Shown piece after piece: positions 34,132 through 56,104 of a stretch of DNA of 64,000 nt; the first letter of the stretch is position 1, and every line of letters starts with the position of its first letter. A program made the position numbers and the translations under genes. The stretch is from positions 96,001 to 160,000 of the IMG/VR virus record IMGVR_UViG_3300025121_000014; one strand, 5' to 3'. The DNA is from a virus. Taxonomy: Duplodnaviria; Caudoviricetes. The notes below the pieces were generated by a model. The model was not told the DNA's origin. It did not search any database and worked only from the letters and a program-made list of their open reading frames with translations.

Positions 34132-34458
34132 ATGAAAATGTTAAATATAATTACAAACACATTTAACTCTTTAACGACTTTCATATATAGTATGTTAGAT
34201 TGGATTGTTTATTTATTTTGGGAAATAGGGTGGATGACTATTCAATTACTAAAAGGCAACATAAACGGTACAATAGAAATGTTATATTGGATAAGGATAC
34301 ATTTGACATATGATGGGAAATATATAAGTAAAACAAAATTATCATTAACACAAATAATTAAAAATATTTGCATTGAGATAGTGGGACTTATAGTGACATT
34401 AGGAATTTTATTTTTAACTATTATGTTCATTTTATTGATTATGACTATGAACTACTAA
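34132..34458 (+). CDS. Hypothetical membrane protein
   Basis: Hydrophobic C-terminal segment; last codons (ATGAACTAC) match an IS right-end tail. Confidence 0.5.
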   Translation: MKMLNIITNTFNSLTTFIYSMLDWIVYLFWEIGWMTIQLLKGNINGTIEMLYWIRIHLTYDGKYISKTKLSLTQIIKNICIEIVGLIVTLGILFLTIMFILLIMTMNY

Positions 34459-34517
34459 AATTAAAATTTAATATTTAATTATAAATATTTTATATATAAA
34501 ATAAAATATTTATTAAT

Positions 34518-34943
34518 ATGGAACACGACAAAAAACTAAAAAATTTCATTAAAACTAATATTAAAGATTTTTTGAATGAACAAGTTGTGATGAAAAAACC
34601 TATCATAATTAAATCAAAAAAGAATGATTTGATGTATATTAAAATTAGCTTTGATGAAAAAGGTAGAGTTGATAAAATTGAGAATAAATGGGATGTTAAA
34701 ATACCCGAATATTATGGTTTTGATATTAATGAAATTGAAATAAATAATTGGATTAGAAGAAAAGAACCAGATTTATACATTGAAAAAGAAATAAACGAAA
34801 ATACATATAAAATAGCGTTTGATGATGAAATTAAATATGAACTTAAACGTTATTTACAGAATACAATATGGAATAAAGTTGGTGGAATTGACGAAAGAGC
34901 TGATAAACTAATGGAATTACATAATGAACTACACATCAAATAA
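34518..34943 (+). CDS. Hypothetical protein with its 3' end interrupted by mini-IS A
   Basis: C-terminal residues ELHIK* are read from the element's right end. Confidence 0.6.
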   Translation: MEHDKKLKNFIKTNIKDFLNEQVVMKKPIIIKSKKNDLMYIKISFDEKGRVDKIENKWDVKIPEYYGFDINEIEINNWIRRKEPDLYIEKEINENTYKIAFDDEIKYELKRYLQNTIWNKVGGIDERADKLMELHNELHIK

Positions 34944-35185
34944 ATATTAATGTGTTTCAACGTTTCATAGACTTGACTATTGTCAACGCCTCACCGTCTT
35001 TTTGTTTATACTACGAAATCAGTCCCTGACCCACAGTTTAAAAATATTTTTAAACATTTTTAATGACACTTAACTTGGTTTTCGTTAAATGTTTGACTAT
35101 CAAGTATTTACATACTTGAACCTCAATGATTTTACTTGATCTAGGTTTGTAGATCAAAACCATTAAATCATTTCAAAGAACTTTT
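34905..35185 (-). ncRNA. Putative omega-like RNA from mini-IS A plus flanking guide (boundaries approximate)
   Basis: Three 8-bp hairpins, then a TnpB-3'-like scaffold (GGTCAGGGACTGA..AAACAAAAA..GAGGCGTTG..AGTCTATGAA) and the right end; promoter motif at 35198-35207. Confidence 0.55.
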
Positions 35186-35276
35186 ATTTAATTATTATAT
35201 ATATTAAATAATGAAAGCCAAAAAAGTCAAATTCATCACATAACTAAAGGTTTATGTGTTTTCTTTGATGGCTCAT
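34924..35276 (-). mobile_element. Mini-IS A: ORF-less IS200/IS605-type element (353 bp)
   Basis: TTTAT precedes the left-end hairpin ATGAGCCATCAAAGAAAACACATAAACCTTTAGTTATGTGATGAATTTGAC; right end GAAACACATT..GATGTGTAGTTCAT. Confidence 0.85.
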
Positions 35277-35295
35277 ATAAAAAAAAGTTTTTAAA

Positions 35296-35976
35296 ATGTG
35301 GAGTTATTACGGAAGAAAAAGTAAAGTAGTTAAATATTACCCTAATCCAATACACGACAAAATAATAGAACCTTTTGCAGGAACCGCCGTTTATTCGTTA
35401 TATGAAAATAATTGGGAAAAAGAAGTATTGTTAGTTGATAAATATAATGTTATTGTTGAATTATGGCATTATTTACAACAAGCAACAGCAAAAGATATAT
35501 TATCATTACCTGATATGGAATATCATGATAATGTTGATCAACATACACAATTATCAAAAGAAGAAAAATGGTTAATAGGTTTTAATATAAACGGTGGTTC
35601 ATCTCAACCAAAAAAAACTACTATGAAATATAATGTTTGGAATAATATTAAACCTGTTATTGCAGAAAATCTTTATAAAATTAAACATTGGAAAATTATA
35701 GAAGGTGATTATAGAGATATTAAAAATGAAAAAGCAACCTGGTTTATAGATCCACCTTATCAAACTGGTGGAATTTATTATAGACACAATAATTCTAAAA
35801 TTAATTTTCCAGAATTATCAGATTGGTGTAAAAGTAGAAATGGTCAAATTATTGTTTGTGAAAATACTAAAGCTGATTGGATGGATTTTAAAGCATTAAA
35901 AAAAATGAGAGGTTCTTTACATACAACAACTGAAGCAATTTGGTATCGCGAAAATAATGAAATACTTATTAACTAA
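35296..35976 (+). CDS. DNA adenine methyltransferase (Dam/D12-like)
   Basis: YYGRKSK, EPFAGTA (motif I), IDPPY (motif IV). Confidence 0.88.
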   Translation: MWSYYGRKSKVVKYYPNPIHDKIIEPFAGTAVYSLYENNWEKEVLLVDKYNVIVELWHYLQQATAKDILSLPDMEYHDNVDQHTQLSKEEKWLIGFNINGGSSQPKKTTMKYNVWNNIKPVIAENLYKIKHWKIIEGDYRDIKNEKATWFIDPPYQTGGIYYRHNNSKINFPELSDWCKSRNGQIIVCENTKADWMDFKALKKMRGSLHTTTEAIWYRENNEILIN

Positions 35977-38794: not shown

Positions 38795-39062
38795 AATTAA
38801 AACAAAGTTAGATAATGAACTACCATTAATTTAAAAATTTAATGGTTTCTTTGTATATTTATTTACAAAAACTCCGTAGAGGCTCGTCCATTGAAGCAAA
38901 AGTAGATGTTTTTTAAAAACATATTTAAACTACAAAAAACTTGTTCGTCAAACAAGTTATCTGGTTGAAACTGAACCAGTTCAGTAATATGACGAAAACT
39001 ACTTTATTGATTTTACATCACTTAAGATTTAAAGTGATAACCAAATATATCAAAGAACTTTT
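38795..39062 (-). ncRNA. Putative structured omega-like RNA from mini-IS B (boundaries approximate)
   Basis: Hairpins ATCACTT/AAGTGAT, ACTGAA/TTCAGT, AACTTGTT/AACAAGTT, TTTGTA/TACAAA; promoter motif at 39075-39084. Confidence 0.5.
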
Positions 39063-39155
39063 ATTTAATTATTATATATATTAAATAATTAAAGACTGTT
39101 TTTGTCAAATTCATCCTTTAAACTAAAGATTTAACGGTTTTCTTTGACTGGTCAT
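38815..39155 (-). mobile_element. Mini-IS B: ORF-less IS200/IS605-type element (341 bp)
   Basis: TTTAT|ATGACCAGTCAAAGAAAACCGTTAAATCTTTAGTTTAAAGGATGAATTTGAC left end; right end GAAACCATTAA..TTAATGGTAGTTCAT. Confidence 0.85.
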
Positions 39156-40405: not shown

Positions 40406-40480
40406 GGCCTCATAGTTCTAATTGTGCAGAATAGCGGGTTCTAACCCCGAAGGTTGTAGGTTCGAATCCTACTGAGGTCA
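40406..40480 (+). tRNA. tRNA with anticodon CUA (putative amber suppressor); CCA not encoded
   Basis: Acceptor GGCCTCA/TGAGGTC, D stem GTTC/GAAT, anticodon arm GCGGG-TTCTAAC-CCCGA, variable AGGTT, T arm GTAGG-TTCGAAT-CCTAC. Confidence 0.8.
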
Positions 40481-40568
40481 CAAATTATAATTTAAATCGA
40501 CTAATAAAATACAAAAATTTGAATATCATCATCCGTATCGTTATATTAATTTTTAAATATTTAAATAA

Positions 40569-45569: not shown

Positions 45570-46538
45570 ATGACACAAACTAAAGCATTTATTGATATTT
45601 ATACAAAAGACTATCCAGTAGGAAAAGTTTTGAAATGTAATATGTGGTTAGAAGGAGAATATACTGATAATATGGTATGTGAATTATTATCTAATGGATT
45701 AAGTGATTATGTGAATGGTATAAAAAAATTCAGAAATAAATATATTGTAGCTGGTTTTAAAGTTAATTTTACTATGTATTTTAAAAATAAAGATGAAAAT
45801 AATAGTTTTAATGAAATTATAATAATGGACGAAAGAGATTATAAACAGAACAATACTATATTATTAAATAATAATCGATTAAATAATAATCGATTAAATA
45901 ACATATCAATTACTAAAGTTGATGGTCGTGTTATAGTTGAAGGATCTGAAAATTCACAAAAAGTAGAACTTACATCCGATTTAAAAATAGCTACTGATGG
46001 TGGTTCGACCATAAATATTAATGATAAAACAACTGAAAAAAAGAAATTTGTAAAAGCTAATTTAAAAAATCTTAGACTATATTTATACAATAATGAAGAA
46101 TTAACCGAATTAAAACATAAATTAGAAATTGAATTTTTTAAAAGAAAATATAAATTAAGTGATGATGAATTTACATATTATTTAGAAAATAGAAATATTA
46201 TAAAACCCGAAAATATTAAAAAATCATTTAAAAGAAATGGTGGAGATGCATTTAAAATTAAAAAAAATAGAATTAGAAAAAAATTATTCCCACTTGATAA
46301 AAATGATAAAATAATTGATACTACTATAAAAAATGATAGTGAAAATATTGTTGAAAAAAAAAGTCCAATAATCCCTGAATTATCTCCTGATGCGATTAAA
46401 ATTGCATCTGAAATTAAACCAAAATCAAGAATTAAAATTATTAAACCTAAAACAACAAAATATAAAAAAATGAATGGAAAAACAACACCAGTATCAAAAA
46501 CAACAATTAATGAACTACCAACTACACTAAAGATGTAG
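45570..46538 (+). CDS. Hypothetical protein, paralog 3; 3' end altered by the IS insertion
   Basis: TKAFIDIYTKDYPVGKVLKCNMW; the empty site restores ..KTTINKTIKIENPLKN*. Confidence 0.6.
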   Translation: MTQTKAFIDIYTKDYPVGKVLKCNMWLEGEYTDNMVCELLSNGLSDYVNGIKKFRNKYIVAGFKVNFTMYFKNKDENNSFNEIIIMDERDYKQNNTILLNNNRLNNNRLNNISITKVDGRVIVEGSENSQKVELTSDLKIATDGGSTININDKTTEKKKFVKANLKNLRLYLYNNEELTELKHKLEIEFFKRKYKLSDDEFTYYLENRNIIKPENIKKSFKRNGGDAFKIKKNRIRKKLFPLDKNDKIIDTTIKNDSENIVEKKSPIIPELSPDAIKIASEIKPKSRIKIIKPKTTKYKKMNGKTTPVSKTTINELPTTLKM

Positions 46539-47969
46539 TGGTTTCTGAATCGAACTGATTCATCTCTTTAAGCACTTCATTGCCGTTGCCTAATTTCTTA
46601 GGTCTTATTTTTGCTCCATGCTCGTAATCAGACGTTCCATCTGATATATTTTTTCTATATCCTTCATTGAGGATATTGATTGCTGCATTTACATCTCTGT
46701 CTTGTTTTTCACCACACTTACAATCCCAAGTTCGGTCTTTTAATGTTAAACCATTATTGATCCACCCGCACTTACTACAAGTCTTACTTGAAGGAAAAAA
46801 TCTATCTATGTGTATGACTTGTTTATCATTCCATTCAGCCTTGTATTCAAGGATATTAATGAAAGTTGACCAAGCAACATCTAAAATTGATTTGTTTAAT
46901 CCTGATTTAGCAGACTGACCATTTGGAAGATATTTACCATTTTCATCTTGTTTTGATTTACACCTATGAGACATACCTTTAACATTTAAGTCTTCAAGGT
47001 AAATCACATCAAATTGTTTTATTAAATCTAAAGCGGTTTTATGTATTAAATCCATTCTTGAATTACTTATCTTTTCATGTATCCTTGCAACTTTAATTCT
47101 TTGCTTTTCATAACGAATTGATTGTTTTACTTTTCTTGATAGAGATTGTTGATTTAATTTTAATTGATGTTGATAGTGTTTTAAAAATCTATGGTTCTTG
47201 ATTTTCGTTCCATTAGATAACACTAAAAAATCTTTTAATCCTAAATCTATTCCTACTGATAATCCACTTTTATTCATTGATATGTATTCCATTTCAGTTA
47301 AAATAGAAACAAAATACTTACCAGTAGGTGTTTTTGATATAACACAGTGTTTTATAACACCATTTATTTTACGTTCCATAATCATTTCAATACCATCTTT
47401 TCTAAACTTTGGTATGTAAAGTTTATTTTTCTTTACAGATACAAATTGTGGTATGGTAAATGAATTTTTTGATTTTCTTGACTTAAATTTTGGAAATTTT
47501 GTCCTCTTTTTAAAAAATCCATCATATGCAGTATCTAAACAATTTAAAGAAAATTGAAGTGTCTGACTATTAATTTCTTTCAACCATTTTTTATCTTCAA
47601 GTTTTTTAATTTGAGTTAATTCTTTTGATTGGTCATAATAATTTAAAGTTTTCTTATTGTTTAAATATTCATTTTTTCTTTGATTTAAAAAATAATTATA
47701 CACAAACCTCACTGAACCAAAATGTTTATTCAATAACACTTGTTGTTGTTCTGTTGGTTCTAATCTAAACTTATATGTATATCTAATTATTTTCATTTTT
47801 TATGTCAAAGTTTTTTCTTAACATAAGTATATATTAAAAGAAAAATGTCTGTTTTTCCATTTTTGAATTATTTATTAAAACTTTTAACTATTTTCAAAAT
47901 AATTAAAACCCGTTTTGGTCAAATTCATCCATTAAACTAAAGATTTAACGGTTTTCTTTGACGGTCAGT
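46510..47969 (-). mobile_element. IS200/IS605-family (tnpB-only, IS1341-like) element T1
   Basis: TTTAT (plus-strand ATAAA 47970-74), left-end hairpin 47918-47969, right end GAAACCACTACATCTTTAGTGTAGTTGGTAGTTCAT. Confidence 0.88.
46522..47796 (-). CDS. tnpB: RNA-guided endonuclease TnpB, apparently intact
   Basis: YTYKFRLEPT HTH, GIDLG, YLEDL, CSKC..CKC zinc finger, DRDVNAAINI. Confidence 0.93.
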   Translation of the reverse strand: MKIIRYTYKFRLEPTEQQQVLLNKHFGSVRFVYNYFLNQRKNEYLNNKKTLNYYDQSKELTQIKKLEDKKWLKEINSQTLQFSLNCLDTAYDGFFKKRTKFPKFKSRKSKNSFTIPQFVSVKKNKLYIPKFRKDGIEMIMERKINGVIKHCVISKTPTGKYFVSILTEMEYISMNKSGLSVGIDLGLKDFLVLSNGTKIKNHRFLKHYQHQLKLNQQSLSRKVKQSIRYEKQRIKVARIHEKISNSRMDLIHKTALDLIKQFDVIYLEDLNVKGMSHRCKSKQDENGKYLPNGQSAKSGLNKSILDVAWSTFINILEYKAEWNDKQVIHIDRFFPSSKTCSKCGWINNGLTLKDRTWDCKCGEKQDRDVNAAINILNEGYRKNISDGTSDYEHGAKIRPKKLGNGNEVLKEMNQFDSETTTSLV

Positions 47970-47987
47970 ATAAAACAATAAAAATCG

Positions 47988-48016
47988 AAAACCCCCTTAA
48001 AAATTAAGGGGGTTTT
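47988..48016. terminator. Bidirectional hairpin terminator
   Basis: AAAACCCCCTTAA-AAA-TTAAGGGGGTTTT between convergent genes. Confidence 0.8.
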
Positions 48017-48021
48017 TTGTT

Positions 48022-48507
48022 TTACAATGTTAAACATTTTTTGATATCTTTAGATTTAAAATAAATAAATATTTTTTCTCGTTGTTTAACATTAGTCGTT
48101 TCAATATTATTTAATTTTTTCTCTATGTTTTTAATATAAATAATTAAATCATCTATACCTTGTCTATAATTAAATGGTGCTTTATAATATTCTGGAAATT
48201 TATTCATATAAGTTGTTACATCTTTTAGAATAGTATTTTTATTTATATAAAGTTCATCTTTTATTACATTACTTTTTATTTGTAATGAATCTAATACATT
48301 TTCATTAAATCTATGAATTAAATTATCAGTCTCTATAACTTTCAATAAACCAATTGCAAATGCATCTTCTTCTGACAAAGATATAGGCTTATTATCTTCT
48401 ACTATTTTTTTAATTTCTTCTTCATCATTATTATATAAACAGAATTTTTTGTATTTATCCCATAAACATCTTTGTATAATATCATTTGGTGTTATGATTA
48501 TTTGCAT
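48022..48507 (-). CDS. Hypothetical protein
   Basis: 161-aa ORF. Confidence 0.6.
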   Translation of the reverse strand: MQIIITPNDIIQRCLWDKYKKFCLYNNDEEEIKKIVEDNKPISLSEEDAFAIGLLKVIETDNLIHRFNENVLDSLQIKSNVIKDELYINKNTILKDVTTYMNKFPEYYKAPFNYRQGIDDLIIYIKNIEKKLNNIETTNVKQREKIFIYFKSKDIKKCLTL

Positions 48508-49203: not shown

Positions 49204-49848
49204 TTAAATATTTTTTTTTATTTTTTTTATTTTTTTTAATCTTTCAAATAAAATATTAGGATTTTCATATAGTTCAAAAACTTCTTTAAGTTGATTTTCA
49301 TCTTTAATATCATATGTATGTTGCCACACAAGACCTTCTAAATGTATATCTGTTTTATCCCTTTCAGTTTGAACTACATCAATATAAAATGATTTAGGTG
49401 TAAATGGAAAATTCCTAATATATTGACGACTTGATAATGTTTTTCCATTTTTTAACTTAATACCACCACCTTGGCTATTAGAACATATACCATTATTATC
49501 TTTAAATATAATAGCATTTATATAATAAGCTTTACCATCTTTACCTTCTTTAAATACAGCACTATTTCTATTATTTTGATATACATGTGTTTTATGTACT
49601 GTATAATTAATATCCCATTCATCATCTTCGCCTGTTAATGGTGACAATGTATTTTGTAAACATAATGTTTTTACTGCTTGGGATATTATAGAAGCCGTAT
49701 AAGGAGTTGAACCACCACTTTGTCCACTATTACCAAACTTATCTATTAATGCTAAAATTTCGTCTTTAAACGGTAAAATAATTGAATCTTGTTCTGTATT
49801 TTCAATAATTTCGAATTCCCTTATTGCTTTATTTTTTGTATAGTTCAT
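49204..49848 (-). CDS. Phage hypothetical protein
   Basis: FGNSGQSGGS, LSPLTGEDDEW motifs. Confidence 0.6.
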   Translation of the reverse strand: MNYTKNKAIREFEIIENTEQDSIILPFKDEILALIDKFGNSGQSGGSTPYTASIISQAVKTLCLQNTLSPLTGEDDEWDINYTVHKTHVYQNNRNSAVFKEGKDGKAYYINAIIFKDNNGICSNSQGGGIKLKNGKTLSSRQYIRNFPFTPKSFYIDVVQTERDKTDIHLEGLVWQHTYDIKDENQLKEVFELYENPNILFERLKKIKKIKKNI

Positions 49849-50682: not shown

Positions 50683-51207
50683 ATGAAGTTAACAGATAAG
50701 CAAATAAAGGAAACATATATAAATGTATTAACTAGTACAAAAGTTAATGATATAATTAAGAAAAATAGCCAGGGACTTAAACTTGCGCTAAATGAACATA
50801 TATGGTTTGAAAAACAATTTGGTGTGAGAAAAGCAAATCTTAATTTTGCTATGACAACAGGTGAAATAGATGAATATGCCAAATGTAAAATGGATGTTCA
50901 TTACTTTGCAAATAAATATTGCCACATTAAAAGAGAAGACGGTACAATTGGACCAATGCAACTAAGAGATTACCAGAGAGATATTATAGATTTATATGTT
51001 AATAATAGATATTCTATATTAATGACTAGTAGACAATTAGGTAAGTGCAACTCCTTGGTAACCAGATTGTTAGTAAAATTTGACAATGGTGATGAATATG
51101 AAATTACTATGGGAGAATTATATTATACTTACATTCAACAAGAAAGAAAACTAACAATCATAGAAAAAATTAAACTTTTTCTATATAAAGCACTATCTAA
51201 ACTATAA
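50683..51207 (+). CDS. terL: Terminase large subunit N-fragment plus 53-aa N-intein (Cys1 at 51046)
   Basis: LRDYQ adenine motif, SRQLGK then CNSLVTRLLVKFDNG..ITMGELY. Confidence 0.85.
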   Translation: MKLTDKQIKETYINVLTSTKVNDIIKKNSQGLKLALNEHIWFEKQFGVRKANLNFAMTTGEIDEYAKCKMDVHYFANKYCHIKREDGTIGPMQLRDYQRDIIDLYVNNRYSILMTSRQLGKCNSLVTRLLVKFDNGDEYEITMGELYYTYIQQERKLTIIEKIKLFLYKALSKL

Positions 51208-52827
51208 TATTTGATTATAAATATATTTTAAATTACCAGAATTATATATTCTATAAATTTTTCTTTCTAACATAATTTGATGTTCAGTTTTGTTAACATC
51301 ATAACCTTCTTTAATTAATTTATCTTTTCTGAAATTAAATCTATGGTGTCTAATTTGGTCAATAATATAATAATAATTAGGTGATGTTTTATGTATAAAA
51401 TCAAATCCTAAAACTTCATATAATTTTCCATTAGAATGACTTCTATCTGCATATGTAGTTATATTATCAAATTTATAATTTCTAATAAAATACTTAAATA
51501 ATTTACTAGCACATCCTATTACATTTGTATTAAGTTTATTACAAAACCTTAACATTTCATATTGTCCTTCGGTTTTTGAAGATGAATTCATAGATTTTCT
51601 TAATTTTCCAAAAGTCATTAATGAAATTAATTCATTTTCATAAAATAAACCTAATTTAATTTTACTTCCTACAAAACCTTGAATATGATTTTCATCTAGA
51701 AATTTTCTAACTAATTTATTATCAATTATTTCTTTAACTTCTGTTTTTCTAGCGTATATTTTGTTTGGTGTTCTACCTAACTTATTCAATATCATTGATT
51801 TAACTATATCTTGTTTATATACCCAATCATCTTCATATATATGAATTAATTGAATATTTTTTTTATCACATAATTCAGTTTTATCTAAATGATAATTATT
51901 CGGTCTATATAATTCATTATGCCAATAAACACCATTAAATTCAAATGCTAATTTTAAATCAGGGATATAAATATCTAATTCTTTTCCATCTAATATTTTT
52001 CTATCATTTGTTATTATTAAATTATTATAATTTTCTTTTATAAAATCTAATAATTTATTTTCTTTGTCAGAACCAGGATCATTAATAGGATTACATATTG
52101 TACATAATGTAGTATTAGTTTCTAATCTATTATAAAAAATTGTTTTAGGTATTTTACTTATATGATTATTACATTGATATATATAAGTATAATCTTCATA
52201 ATCAATATCAATAATATTGTTATTTTTATATTTTTGGATTAATTTATTTTTTTTATTAATTGTTTTTTTTTCTTGGGTAGATTTTAATTTTGATATATTA
52301 TCAACACCATATAATTTTAAATTAGTTTCTCTATATTTTTCTAAATTATTATAATTTTCATCACCATATTTTTCTTTTTTAGTAACTAACGATTGTTTAT
52401 GATTATTATAATTTTCATCACCATGTTTTTCTTTTTTAGTTTTTTTAATTTTTTCAATATGTTTTGTTGTTTTTGATGGGTGAGTCGTACCATATTTATC
52501 TAAACATGTTTTTATATATTTTTTACTATTTGTATAATTTTCATCACCATATCGTTCTTTTTTAGTTTTTTTCATTTTAATATATTTACATTTATTACAA
52601 TAATATAAGCCATCATCATATGTATTATTAATATATGTTCTATACTCCATATTTTTAATATCTCCACATATATCACATTTAACATCAATTTTAATTGGAC
52701 TGCCTTTAATTAAATCTTTTATATTTATATTTATAGTATCTCCTTTTTTGGCATCATAATTTTTATTTTTATAAAATGTAATATTTCTAGTACTTATATT
52801 CATTTTTACTTGTTCAGTTATAATCAT
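51202..52827 (-). CDS. Hef/Vsr-like free-standing homing endonuclease with KYG repeats and a GNAT-like C-domain
   Basis: ELDIYIPDLKLAFEFNGVYWH, IHIYEDDW, YADRSHSNG; start moved from 52896 (inside the IS end) to MIITEQ. Confidence 0.75.
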   Translation of the reverse strand: MIITEQVKMNISTRNITFYKNKNYDAKKGDTININIKDLIKGSPIKIDVKCDICGDIKNMEYRTYINNTYDDGLYYCNKCKYIKMKKTKKERYGDENYTNSKKYIKTCLDKYGTTHPSKTTKHIEKIKKTKKEKHGDENYNNHKQSLVTKKEKYGDENYNNLEKYRETNLKLYGVDNISKLKSTQEKKTINKKNKLIQKYKNNNIIDIDYEDYTYIYQCNNHISKIPKTIFYNRLETNTTLCTICNPINDPGSDKENKLLDFIKENYNNLIITNDRKILDGKELDIYIPDLKLAFEFNGVYWHNELYRPNNYHLDKTELCDKKNIQLIHIYEDDWVYKQDIVKSMILNKLGRTPNKIYARKTEVKEIIDNKLVRKFLDENHIQGFVGSKIKLGLFYENELISLMTFGKLRKSMNSSSKTEGQYEMLRFCNKLNTNVIGCASKLFKYFIRNYKFDNITTYADRSHSNGKLYEVLGFDFIHKTSPNYYYIIDQIRHHRFNFRKDKLIKEGYDVNKTEHQIMLERKIYRIYNSGNLKYIYNQIL

Positions 52828-52884
52828 ATTATTAGTTTTTATTTTATATATAAAAAGGTCAAAGTGTAAAATATCATTATTTAT

Positions 52885-53736
52885 ATGACCCGTCAAAGAA
52901 AATCGTTAAATCTTTAGTTTAAAGGATGAATTTGACATACCAAAATTAAAATTTACTGATATAGATTTACACAGAGAATTTAAAGGTGATATAAAAACTA
53001 TAACTATTTCAAAAACAACAACAAATAAATATTATATAAGTATTTTAGTCGATAACAAAAAAGAATTGCCTGAAAAACAACCAATTAAATTAGAAACAAC
53101 CGTTGGTGTCGATTTGGGAATTAAAGATTTTGTTATCACTTCAGATGGAAAGAAATTCAAGAACCAAGATTTCTTTAAATCTGCTTTAAAGAAACTAAGA
53201 GTTGAACAGCGTTCCCTTAGTAGAAAACAAAAAGGATCAAACCATTATTTAAATCAAAAATTAAAGGTTTCATTATTTCACGAACACATTAAAAACCAAA
53301 GAGAAGATTACTTACATAAAATAACTAAATACCTTGTAGATAATTATGATACAATTTGTATAGAAAATCTTGGTGTTTCTAATATGATGAAAAACAATAA
53401 GTTAAGTCGTGCTATAAGTGATATGGGTTGGTTTAAATTTAAATCATTTCTTGAATATAAATGTGAATGGTATGGAAAGAATTTAAGTGTGATTGGTAGA
53501 TTTGATCCTTCATCAAAAACATGTTCTGTTTGTGGAAAAATAAATAAAGAATTAACATTAAAAGACAGAAACTGGAAATGTAATTACTGTGGAACAGAAC
53601 ATGATAGAGATATAAATGCTGCAATTAATATAAGAAATTTTGGGTTGAGGAACCAACCTAGCGTTACACAAAGTGAATGGTTGCATTGTGCTTGTAGCGT
53701 AGAAACACACAAATCTTCAGTTTGTGCGTAGTTCAT
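52885..53736 (+). mobile_element. IS200/IS605-type element T2 with 5'-deleted tnpB (852 bp)
   Basis: TTTAT 52880-84, left-end hairpin, right end GAAACACACAAATCTTCAGTTTGTGCGTAGTTCAT. Confidence 0.88.
52937..53731 (+). pseudogene. tnpB: N-terminally truncated TnpB
   Basis: Frame IPKLKF..KYYISILV..GVDLG..IENL..CSVC..CNYC..DRDINAAINI begins right after the left end, with no HTH. Confidence 0.85.
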
Positions 53737-53776
53737 ATATTTTTAATTTGAATTAGTTTATTTAATATATAATGTT

Positions 53777-56026
53777 ATGATTAAATTATTTATAAAACAG
53801 ATAATATATTTAATAATAGAATTATTAGAAAAAATGGAATATAAAAATAATTCATTTGATGAAAATAATCCATTAAAAAAAATTATTAATACTATTCCTA
53901 TTGATAATGTTTCTATTGAAACCGATTATGGGTTTGTTCCTATAACTGAAATGAATTTAACTGCGCCATTATCATTATATAGATTAGAATTAGATAATGG
54001 AGATTGGTTAGAATGTGCAGATGATCATATAGTATTCACAGAAGGACATCAACAAAAATTTGTTAAAAATTTAACAACAGATGATAAAGTATTATGTAGA
54101 GAAAATTATATTGAAGGTATAAAAGTTAAATCAGTTAAAAATCTTAAAAGAAAAGTTAGTTTAATGGATATTACAGTAGATACTAATGAAAAAAGTTATT
54201 TTGCTAATAATATCTTAAATCATAATACAGTTTCAGCCGCAATTGTAATATTGCATTTTTGTTTATTTAAAGAAAATAAAGGTGTTATGGTTGTAGCAAA
54301 TAAAGGAAAAACAACAATAGAAATTATAGAAAAAATAAAAAGTATTTATAAATTATTACCATTCTTTTTAAAAGCGGGTATTATTAATTGGAATCAATCA
54401 AGTATTACTTTTGACAATGGTTGCCAAATTAAAACGGAAAAAAGAACTAAGGAACCTGCAATCGGTTTTACAATAGATCTCCTTTATCTTGATGAATTTG
54501 CTCATATACCTGAGAATTATATTGTACCGTATTATACTGCGGTTGTACCAGTTGTATCTAGTATTGAAAATTCAAAAATTATTATCACATCTACGCCAAA
54601 AGGATTAAACTTATTTCATAAATTATTAATAGAATCTGAATTACCAGAAGATGATCCTAATTGGAATGGTTATCGTTCTTTAAGAGTATACTGGTGGCAG
54701 GTAAAACATAGTAGAGATACAAAAATATTCTTTAACGAAAAGAAATTAAGAAAATATAAATTAAATAAAACTGAATTAAAACAATTCTTAATTGAAAATA
54801 AATATAACATTTATGAAAAAAACGAAAATAATTTAAATGGTATATTTATAAATTATGAACCAAATGAAGAAAGTACTCAGATTGATTATATAAGAAACTT
54901 AAGATATAACGAATTACCTTTATCTGAATTAGGTATGATTACTAATTGGGAGGAACAACAAACTAAATTGATTGGCGGAGAAGATGGTTTTAAACAAGAA
55001 TATGATCTTCATTTCTTAACAGGTAATAAAATGTTATTTGATAGTGTTCTTCTAGAAAAAATGATGGAAGACAAATTACCATTTGAATATTATAGTATTC
55101 CTATATTTAATGAAAAATTAAAAATACCTTATAATAATTTAACATTTGTTAAAGGACAACCAGAATTATTTGATATGAAAAAAGTAAAAGATTATCATAT
55201 TTTTATATCAATTGATTTAGGTGAAGGATTAGGTCAAGATTATAGTGTTATTAATATATTTAGAGTAATGCCAAAAACATCAGAAGAATTAAATTATTTT
55301 AAAAAACGAATTGATGGATTGTATGATTATTTTAAACTTGAGCAAATCGGTATGTTTAAATCAAATATTTATTCAGTTAAAGAAGTATCATTAATATTAT
55401 ATATGATTACTTTCGAATTATTTAATGATAATAAAGTAAGAATAGCACTTGAAAGAAATGTATATGGTGATGAACTTATTGCTCATATGCCACATGTTTT
55501 TGACGATAACAATAATTATTCTAGTCACGTATTTTTAAGATATAAACATAATTTAGAACAAAAAACATCTAGAATGGGAATAAAAGTTAATAGGAATAAA
55601 TTATCATTAATAAAAGATTATCAAATACAAACGAAAAAGGGAAATATTGTTATTCGTCATTTAAATACTATTACCGAATTAAGTACATTTACTAAAAAAG
55701 AAACTCCTAGTGGTGGAATTACATATCAAGGAGAAAGTGGTCACGATGACCAGGCAATGACGGTTATTGTTTTAGCAACAATATTTAATCATGTAGGATG
55801 GAAAAATTGTATTGAAGAATTTATGAAAGAAAATAAAGATAATAGAAATCTAATACATAATGATTTTAACAAAATTGTTGATGAATATCAAGCAGATATT
55901 GGTGATATTAAAACGTTTCAAATTTCATATAAAAAGATTTATAATAAAAATTACAATCCTAAAAATCAAAAACAAGTTGGATATGGTGGTAAAATAGCAC
56001 CTCCCATTTTTCCAACAAGAAGATAA
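53777..56026 (+). CDS. terL: 150-aa C-intein plus terminase large subunit C-fragment (Thr+1 at 54227)
   Basis: ECADDH block B, YFANNILNHN|TVSAA; LYLDEFAHI, ITSTPKG, SIDLGEG, GHDD. Confidence 0.88.
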   Translation: MIKLFIKQIIYLIIELLEKMEYKNNSFDENNPLKKIINTIPIDNVSIETDYGFVPITEMNLTAPLSLYRLELDNGDWLECADDHIVFTEGHQQKFVKNLTTDDKVLCRENYIEGIKVKSVKNLKRKVSLMDITVDTNEKSYFANNILNHNTVSAAIVILHFCLFKENKGVMVVANKGKTTIEIIEKIKSIYKLLPFFLKAGIINWNQSSITFDNGCQIKTEKRTKEPAIGFTIDLLYLDEFAHIPENYIVPYYTAVVPVVSSIENSKIIITSTPKGLNLFHKLLIESELPEDDPNWNGYRSLRVYWWQVKHSRDTKIFFNEKKLRKYKLNKTELKQFLIENKYNIYEKNENNLNGIFINYEPNEESTQIDYIRNLRYNELPLSELGMITNWEEQQTKLIGGEDGFKQEYDLHFLTGNKMLFDSVLLEKMMEDKLPFEYYSIPIFNEKLKIPYNNLTFVKGQPELFDMKKVKDYHIFISIDLGEGLGQDYSVINIFRVMPKTSEELNYFKKRIDGLYDYFKLEQIGMFKSNIYSVKEVSLILYMITFELFNDNKVRIALERNVYGDELIAHMPHVFDDNNNYSSHVFLRYKHNLEQKTSRMGIKVNRNKLSLIKDYQIQTKKGNIVIRHLNTITELSTFTKKETPSGGITYQGESGHDDQAMTVIVLATIFNHVGWKNCIEEFMKENKDNRNLIHNDFNKIVDEYQADIGDIKTFQISYKKIYNKNYNPKNQKQVGYGGKIAPPIFPTRR

Positions 56027-56104
56027 TGTAGTTCATTAAACAAAAAATATCTATTTTTTCATTTTTGAAAAACTTATAATTATTTTCGAAATATAAGGTA
56101 TAAT

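Follow-up and report, generated by a model that had tools for sequence, protein, structure and literature searches.

The DNA examined is a 64-kb stretch of a large groundwater phage with 23% GC (hereafter, the window), the genes of which include virion proteins, RtcB and a T4-type terminase. A protein-free element of the IS200/IS605 type, 353 nt long and referred to as element A, was confirmed at 34924-35276. It lies on the minus strand, with a plus-strand gene on either side of it (34518-34943 and 35296-35976). The first-pass annotation had reported here a TTTAT motif, a left-end hairpin, a palindromic block with a phage promoter motif, a TnpB-type scaffold and a right end finishing in TTCAT, and all of these are present on the minus strand where it had placed them.

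The TTTAT target site, which is also the predicted TAM, occupies 35277-35281 and abuts the 5' end of element A. The boundaries are exact to the base, given that identity to a copy in another contig (L001) begins right after TTTAT and ends at TTCAT. The left end (35226-35276) is composed of TCAAAGAAAAC, a subterminal hairpin at 35258-35237 (stem CACATAA/TTATGTG, loop ACCTTTAG) and then GATGAATTTGAC. When aligned with the left ends of the related elements B, C and D described below and of other mini elements, the hairpin stem covaries and a loop of the form (T/C)CTTTAG is kept. Further inside, at 35173-35211, is an AT-rich, promoter-like block of 39 nt, which contains TTAATATATA (35198-35207), ends in the conserved GTTCTTTGA and is identical in element B, yielding two matches in the window against zero expected. 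The conserved 5' leader module (35117-35181) consists of GTTCTTTGA, helix P1 (AAUGGUU/AAUCAUU), a variable hairpin P2 and a GUAA bulge, and its model, R2, scores 65.5 bits here.

Several hairpins had also been claimed, and they are found in the sequence of element A: an 8-bp hairpin at 35157-35136; a second one, also of 8 bp and with a GTAA loop (35119-35100), which is specific to the lineage of element A and in which a C-to-T change in the L001 copy retains a G-U pair; a hairpin at 35092-35066, whose conserved loop CGAAAACCAAG recurs with different stems in mini elements of several scaffold types; and a perfect 20-nt palindrome at 35055-35036. The last 116 nt of the element (34924-35039) match a type 2 TnpB omegaRNA scaffold, including the right-end hairpin and GTAGTTCAT, with 118.5 bits under model R1. 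The adjoining flank, TATGTAATTCCATTAG (34908-34923), is in the guide position, an assignment made by position only, and is antisense to the 3' end of ORF 34518-34943. The putative RNA of element A folds with z = -4.36. As for the claim that the element has no ORF, its sole reading frame (35050-35163, 37 aa) shows no conservation among relatives.

At gathering score, Rfam returned a single tRNA for the whole window, and E-value scans (E up to 10 over 34700-35500, and also 46200-48100) returned nothing credible, which argues against a group I intron or an IStron-like ribozyme. Searches of GenBank phages by blastn, both with element A and with the surrounding 20 kb, gave no match.

Four elements in the window, A, B, C and D, have their ends in common. 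The motif GATGAATTTGAC occurs exactly four times in the window, once per element, GTAGTTCAT occurs six times against 0.54 expected, and the right-end hairpins of the four differ in sequence with their pairing kept. Mini element B (38815-39155, minus strand) has the ends, promoter block and 5' module of element A (R2, 68.6 bits), followed by a type 4 scaffold similar to the 3' end of a tnpB that is frameshifted in another contig (L154). Element C (46510-47969, minus strand) is an intact tnpB-only element with a type 1 scaffold. Its protein, TnpB C (46522-47796), has the Pfam domains OrfB_IS605, TNB and HTH, matches ISDra2 TnpB (8BF8) over its full length (E 2e-64) and contains the D/E/D RuvC motifs, so that by sequence it looks catalytically intact. 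Element D (52885-53736, plus strand) is a left end fused to a 5'-truncated tnpB with a type 3 scaffold; about 122 N-terminal residues are missing, and the remainder is 42% identical to TnpB C over residues 123-395. A tblastn search of the window with a genuine Y1 TnpA query gave no match, and PF01797 (TnpA) is present in one of five related contigs.

Other features of the window were observed alongside these elements. A solo GTAGTTCAT lies right after the stop of the terminase ORF (56028-56036, plus strand), with no recognisable hairpin or left end, and is either a chance occurrence or a right-end scar. In the intergenic gap next to that of element A, about 55 nt (34447-34505, minus strand) comprise TTTAT, one 8-bp AT hairpin and then TAGTTCAT, a possible micro-element. 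An intein-splicing match is found in the large terminase subunit (53777-56026), and a Mom-like/DUF7487 gene (51202-52896) is encoded on the opposite strand to it, with element D between the two (50683-56026). An ORF at 49204-49848 (minus strand) matches Pfam Tad3, a type I Thoeris inhibitor, with E 4e-23, and is likely an anti-defence gene. Finally, a tRNA with anticodon CUA (an amber suppressor, called tRNA-Pyl by ARAGORN) at 40406-40481 on the plus strand may be a sign that TAG is recoded or suppressed in some of the phage genes.

Mobility, relatives and mosaic junctions

Element A is mobile: a copy 96% identical to it, with unrelated flanks, is present in the IMG/VR contig L001, and other copies are also found in differing contexts (L133 and L201). 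It belongs to the non-autonomous IS200/IS605 elements (PATEs or MITEs), with subterminal imperfect palindromes at both ends, no terminal inverted repeats and no protein-coding gene. The left-end and right-end hairpins keep their loop type in common, and their stems covary. TTTAT stands 5' of all 16 complete mini elements, with no target duplication and with flanks that are otherwise unrelated, and it also stands 5' of the tnpB elements.

Pattern scans of viral contigs yielded over 20 unique relatives, 263-441 nt long, each after TTTAT and none with a gene. Each begins with a left end and an AT-rich promoter-like stretch, continues through GTTCTTTGA, the 5' stem-loop module and between one and three hairpins, and closes with a scaffold and a right end. 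At least four types of scaffold can be distinguished, of which type 1 is that of TnpB C, type 2 that of element A, type 3 that of element D and type 4 that of element B.

In near-identical phages from other groundwater samples, element A is present in three arrangements. The order in the window is a 141-aa gene, element A and a methyltransferase gene; in L133 a different gene precedes element A and the methyltransferase gene; and in L201 the 141-aa gene and element A are followed by a HAD-family gene. The flank in the guide position differs in L133, with element A the same. Given the breakpoints coincide with the ends of the element, recombination occurred at or within element A, which thus marks a junction of module exchange. 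A query with the methyltransferase for close phage relatives found only relatives at 66% identity or less.

These junctions would also fit a role of element A as DNA, namely as a recombination hotspot that shuffles phage modules, since the window, L133 and L201 share the element and differ on one side exactly at its ends. A related proposal is that the element serves the plus-strand gene downstream of it as a portable promoter or operator. In its favour, the ends of A and B both lie 13-20 nt ahead of a plus-strand start codon, and the block of the two is a palindrome. However, the palindrome is limited to the lineage of A and B, other copies having a one-directional motif, and the promoter motif in its exact form is confined to the strand of the element itself. 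Mosaic junctions, for their part, would arise just as readily from homology, or from a mobile element being a place of cutting and repair. Hence, a role as DNA in either form is considered highly improbable.

The first-pass annotation had suggested that related phages be searched for the empty site, and this search came out negative, as no insertion-free allele was found by any of three routes. A metagenome scan with the flank pattern gave a single chance match in an unrelated gene; exact-protein look-ups of three flanking genes gave only occupied sites or contigs broken at the element; and a search for TTTAT plus guide in all the DNA retrieved gave occupied junctions and one match in L032, which was ruled out as an empty site, being a look-alike in a paralogous gene. 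Given that CheckV completeness is only 3-23% for contigs of 18-135 kb (among G001-G014), the TnpB-rich groundwater phages are implied to have very large genomes.

The omegaRNA scaffold and its probable TnpB partner

Model R1 is a covariance model built from 15 aligned type 2 scaffolds, taken from protein-free elements only. In this alignment 95% of the cells are paired, against 81% in shuffles and 30-38% when the partners are slid; none of 500 shuffles reaches the observed value, and 17 pairs present a compensatory change. Pairing is therefore kept where no coding constraint exists, and the type 2 scaffold has an RNA structure under selection, as would be required of a stand-alone omegaRNA. 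The covariation of the hairpins could in principle reflect a DNA structure of the top strand. Conserved G-U pairs, which are seen both in the scaffold and in the 5' module, would be A-C mismatches on the opposite strand, and hence the structure is that of the strand onto which the promoter reads. A covariance model of homologs had been proposed as a check on the hairpins, and they do covary (17 compensatory pairs in the scaffold, and seven of the nine P2 pairs in the leader).

When applied to the 3' ends of intact phage tnpB genes, R1 matched end to end with 112.7 bits at L149 and 111.2 bits at L206, which bears out the earlier description of a scaffold of the TnpB 3' type. Three tnpB loci of a Paracaedibacteraceae genome (L042-L044) scored 47-57 bits. 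Judging from these matches, the last 116 nt of element A are a genuine TnpB omegaRNA scaffold, and the natural partner of the element would by the same evidence be a type 2 TnpB, none of which is encoded in the 64-kb window. The effectors that the window does offer are TnpB C, which is of another subtype, and the truncated protein of element D. Beyond the window, a full-length TnpB is encoded in all five of the phage contigs with mini elements that were tested, and in one contig (G007) a type 2 mini element and a type 2 tnpB occur together. Most of these contigs are put at no more than 3-50% of completeness, so that a gene missing from them says little.

The earlier proposal was that element A supplies, in trans, the RNA that programs the TnpB encoded in the window itself (46522-47796). 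The premise stands, in that the scaffold is truly of the omegaRNA kind, and the two elements are alike in their TAM, left end, type of right-end hairpin and terminal GAAAC-hairpin-GTAGTTCAT beside the guide. TnpB C, moreover, looks catalytically intact from its motifs, and the two elements are 11 kb apart in one genome. The pairing itself fares less well: the scaffold subtypes differ, and R1 scores only 20.4 bits at TnpB C (E 0.05), largely from the right end held in common, against 112.7 bits at the cognate locus L149, whose TnpB is 49% identical to TnpB C. Type 1 scaffolds also have one extra hairpin and no Pa stem, unlike that of element A, and the occurrence elsewhere of mini elements with type 1 scaffolds suggests that matched pairs are the rule. 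The difference in score and the low protein identity make this pairing doubtful, and we regard it as rather unlikely.

The same data bear on the reading of element A as an ordinary PATE or MITE, that is, a decaying deletion derivative with no RNA function, whose motifs are leftovers hitch-hiking on transposition. Deletion intermediates do exist, among them element D and the shortened copies L036 and L039; the 64-kb window has no cognate TnpB, and the sequencing runs with the locus are of DNA only. Yet compensatory changes keep Pa, S1, S2 and S3, helices that are not terminal and are dispensable for TnpA, the same non-coding and highly conserved 5' module is found on several scaffold types, and the promoter motif is kept at a fixed place. 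Simple decay is thus very unlikely.

Three further observations concern scaffolds. A long-range stem, TTTCGTAG/CTATGAAA, was considered in the folding of the scaffold and dropped for a stem enclosing S1, because a T-to-C change in L001 strengthens the latter and breaks the rival pairing. Contig G002 contains a frameshifted tnpB element (L154), with the same ends and a 3' region matching the scaffold of element B, in addition to a B-like mini element (L008) and the intact type 2 tnpB L149. On a 290-kb viral contig that also has a Y1 TnpA, a type 2-like scaffold (L028:2900-3100) follows AAGTTCTTTAA in GC-richer surroundings, with neither right-end hairpin nor left end, and may be an immobilised or domesticated guide RNA.

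The 5' leader module and the promoter motif

The 40 unique copies of the 5' module present one structure: P1 (UAUGGUU/AAUCAUG, with a conserved G-U), a 4-nt GUAA bulge and a P2 hairpin of 7-10 bp. A first version of the module helix, UGAU/AUCA, was replaced by the contiguous UAUGGUU/AAUCAUG, which covaries. In total, 93% of the cells are paired, against 74% in shuffles, and compensatory changes affect, besides the P2 pairs given above, two outer P1 pairs. The invariance of GTTCTTTGA, GGTT and GTAAAATCA is partly a matter of ascertainment, as these were part of some of the search patterns; the helices are unaffected by this, as are the first five copies, which were found by end motifs only.

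In the window, R2 matches elements A and B only. The module precedes at least four scaffold types, and also omegaRNA-like scaffolds of other IS200/605 subfamilies with different ends. It has no match in Rfam, and R2 found no module in 17 tnpB loci, a result that upholds the earlier suggestion of a 5' structured domain not derived from coding sequence.

In one contig (L180:4600-4760, minus strand) all that comes after the module is a pair of short hairpins and a T-run, an omegaRNA scaffold being absent, and from its sequence the module may occur by itself as a small RNA. More broadly, the RNA of element A could be mainly independent of TnpB, either with the module serving as a small regulatory or anti-defence RNA or with the transcript serving as an antisense regulator of ORF 34518-34943. 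The module is the most conserved part of the element and is unlinked to tnpB loci, the arrangement in L180 is of the kind expected, and the transcript would oppose the 3' end of the upstream gene. Against this, an omegaRNA-type scaffold and a right end come after the module in nearly all copies, and the target of an antisense transcript differs between copies, all of which makes a role of this sort quite unlikely.

With regard to expression, the phage promoter motif that the first-pass annotation had recognised in element A is present and in the right orientation. The window has 17 occurrences of the motif TTAATATATA, where 6.7 would be expected, and most of them precede an ORF start by 15-45 nt and are oriented with the gene, tnpB included; in A and B the motif points toward the module and scaffold. 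Among 48 unique upstream regions, retrieved with search patterns that did not require it, TTAATATATA or a close variant lies within 60 nt in 27. Other copies have different promoter-like sequences, such as TTGACA-17-TATACA in L159. Scans with the sigma-70 consensus remained at chance level and are uninformative in DNA of 23% GC. The block of element A would thus act as a promoter, to judge by its motif, and transcription would follow; the sequencing runs holding the locus are groundwater DNA runs only.

Proposed function and comparison with known systems

Element A is probably a functional stand-alone omegaRNA gene, carried by a protein-free IS200/605 element and used in trans by a type 2 TnpB for retention or homing. 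It would be a non-autonomous, PATE-like element, moved as single-stranded DNA by a Y1 TnpA made elsewhere, which would act through both ends and insert it after TTTAT. From the internal phage-type promoter, a structured RNA of about 270 nt would be transcribed, presenting in order the 5' leader stem-loop, two or three hairpins, the TnpB omegaRNA scaffold and a guide of about 16 nt from the flank. A type 2 TnpB from another element in the same phage, from a co-infecting phage or from the host would load this RNA and cut insertion-free alleles flanked by TTTAT, and repair from the occupied copy would keep or spread the element. Occupied sites would be spared, the right end being TTCAT and not TTTAT.

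A bolder proposal concerns the leader, comprising GTTCTTTGA, P1, the GUAA bulge, P2 and often then the hairpin with the CGAAAACCAAG loop. Tentatively, and with less confidence than would be needed to prefer it, this may be a new functional RNA domain that defines autonomous guide-RNA genes, which would be RNA-only hyperparasites of TnpB elements in very large phages. Such genes would have exchanged the leader between at least four scaffold lineages as a means to their own expression, stability or loading where no tnpB mRNA is available, and would in addition promote homing and the exchange of modules when phages co-infect.

Should the RNA be produced and put to use, element A would be a transposon shrunk to two ends, a promoter and a guide RNA, with both transposase and nuclease borrowed, and a natural example of RNA-guided homing between phages. 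The common leader, if its proposed role is true, points to a so far unknown step of omegaRNA biogenesis or stability that operates without tnpB mRNA, and is relevant to how separate guide-RNA genes (tracrRNA, crRNA) evolved from transposon RNAs. In practice, the expression of compact TnpB guides may also benefit.

The concept of such an element is already known, given the published stand-alone omegaRNAs and omegaRNA-bearing PATEs. Stand-alone omegaRNAs with neither effector nor transposase, which are mobilised and function in trans with compatible effectors, were described by Altae-Tran et al. 2021, as summarised in PMC10691335. According to Meers et al. 2023 (bioRxiv 10.1101/2023.03.14.532601), omegaRNAs dependent on TnpB in trans are frequently encoded by PATEs, an IStron PATE is on record (10.1101/2023.11.20.567912), and transposon homing against co-infecting phages forms a category in a 2026 review (PMC13565253). 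We found no description in the literature of phage-borne elements with a dedicated promoter and a conserved structured leader common to several scaffold lineages. What is new in the family of element A is therefore its own promoter together with a conserved 5' RNA stem-loop, carried by phages.

In comparison with the stand-alone omegaRNAs as summarised in PMC10691335, element A is likewise an omegaRNA locus with neither effector nor transposase, and in both cases genomes also have effector-encoding elements. It differs in residing in a large phage, in being linked to TnpB, as distinct from the original examples, and in having a phage-type promoter and a 5' leader found across scaffold types; the function of element A, moreover, is predicted. 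As with PATEs, it is protein-free, has subterminal hairpins at both ends and would be mobilised in trans, but it has in addition the promoter motif and the leader, a structured stretch of about 65 nt that is absent from the 17 tnpB loci.

The ISDra2 TnpB-omegaRNA complex (PDB 8BF8, 8EXA and 8H1J) resembles the present case in that its omegaRNA comes from the 3' end of tnpB and the right end, its guide from the flank, and its TAM is the transposon target. Unlike element A, which has no tnpB and whose scaffold lineage belongs to a TnpB 49% identical to TnpB C, the omegaRNA of ISDra2 is cut from the tnpB mRNA. Finally, the free-standing homing endonuclease genes of T-even phages (PMC13565253) are similar in the proposed cut of the element-free allele in a co-infecting phage, the subsequent repair and co-conversion, and the mosaic junctions at the element. 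In element A, however, recognition would be by an RNA guide and a TAM, and the nuclease is predicted to be encoded elsewhere.
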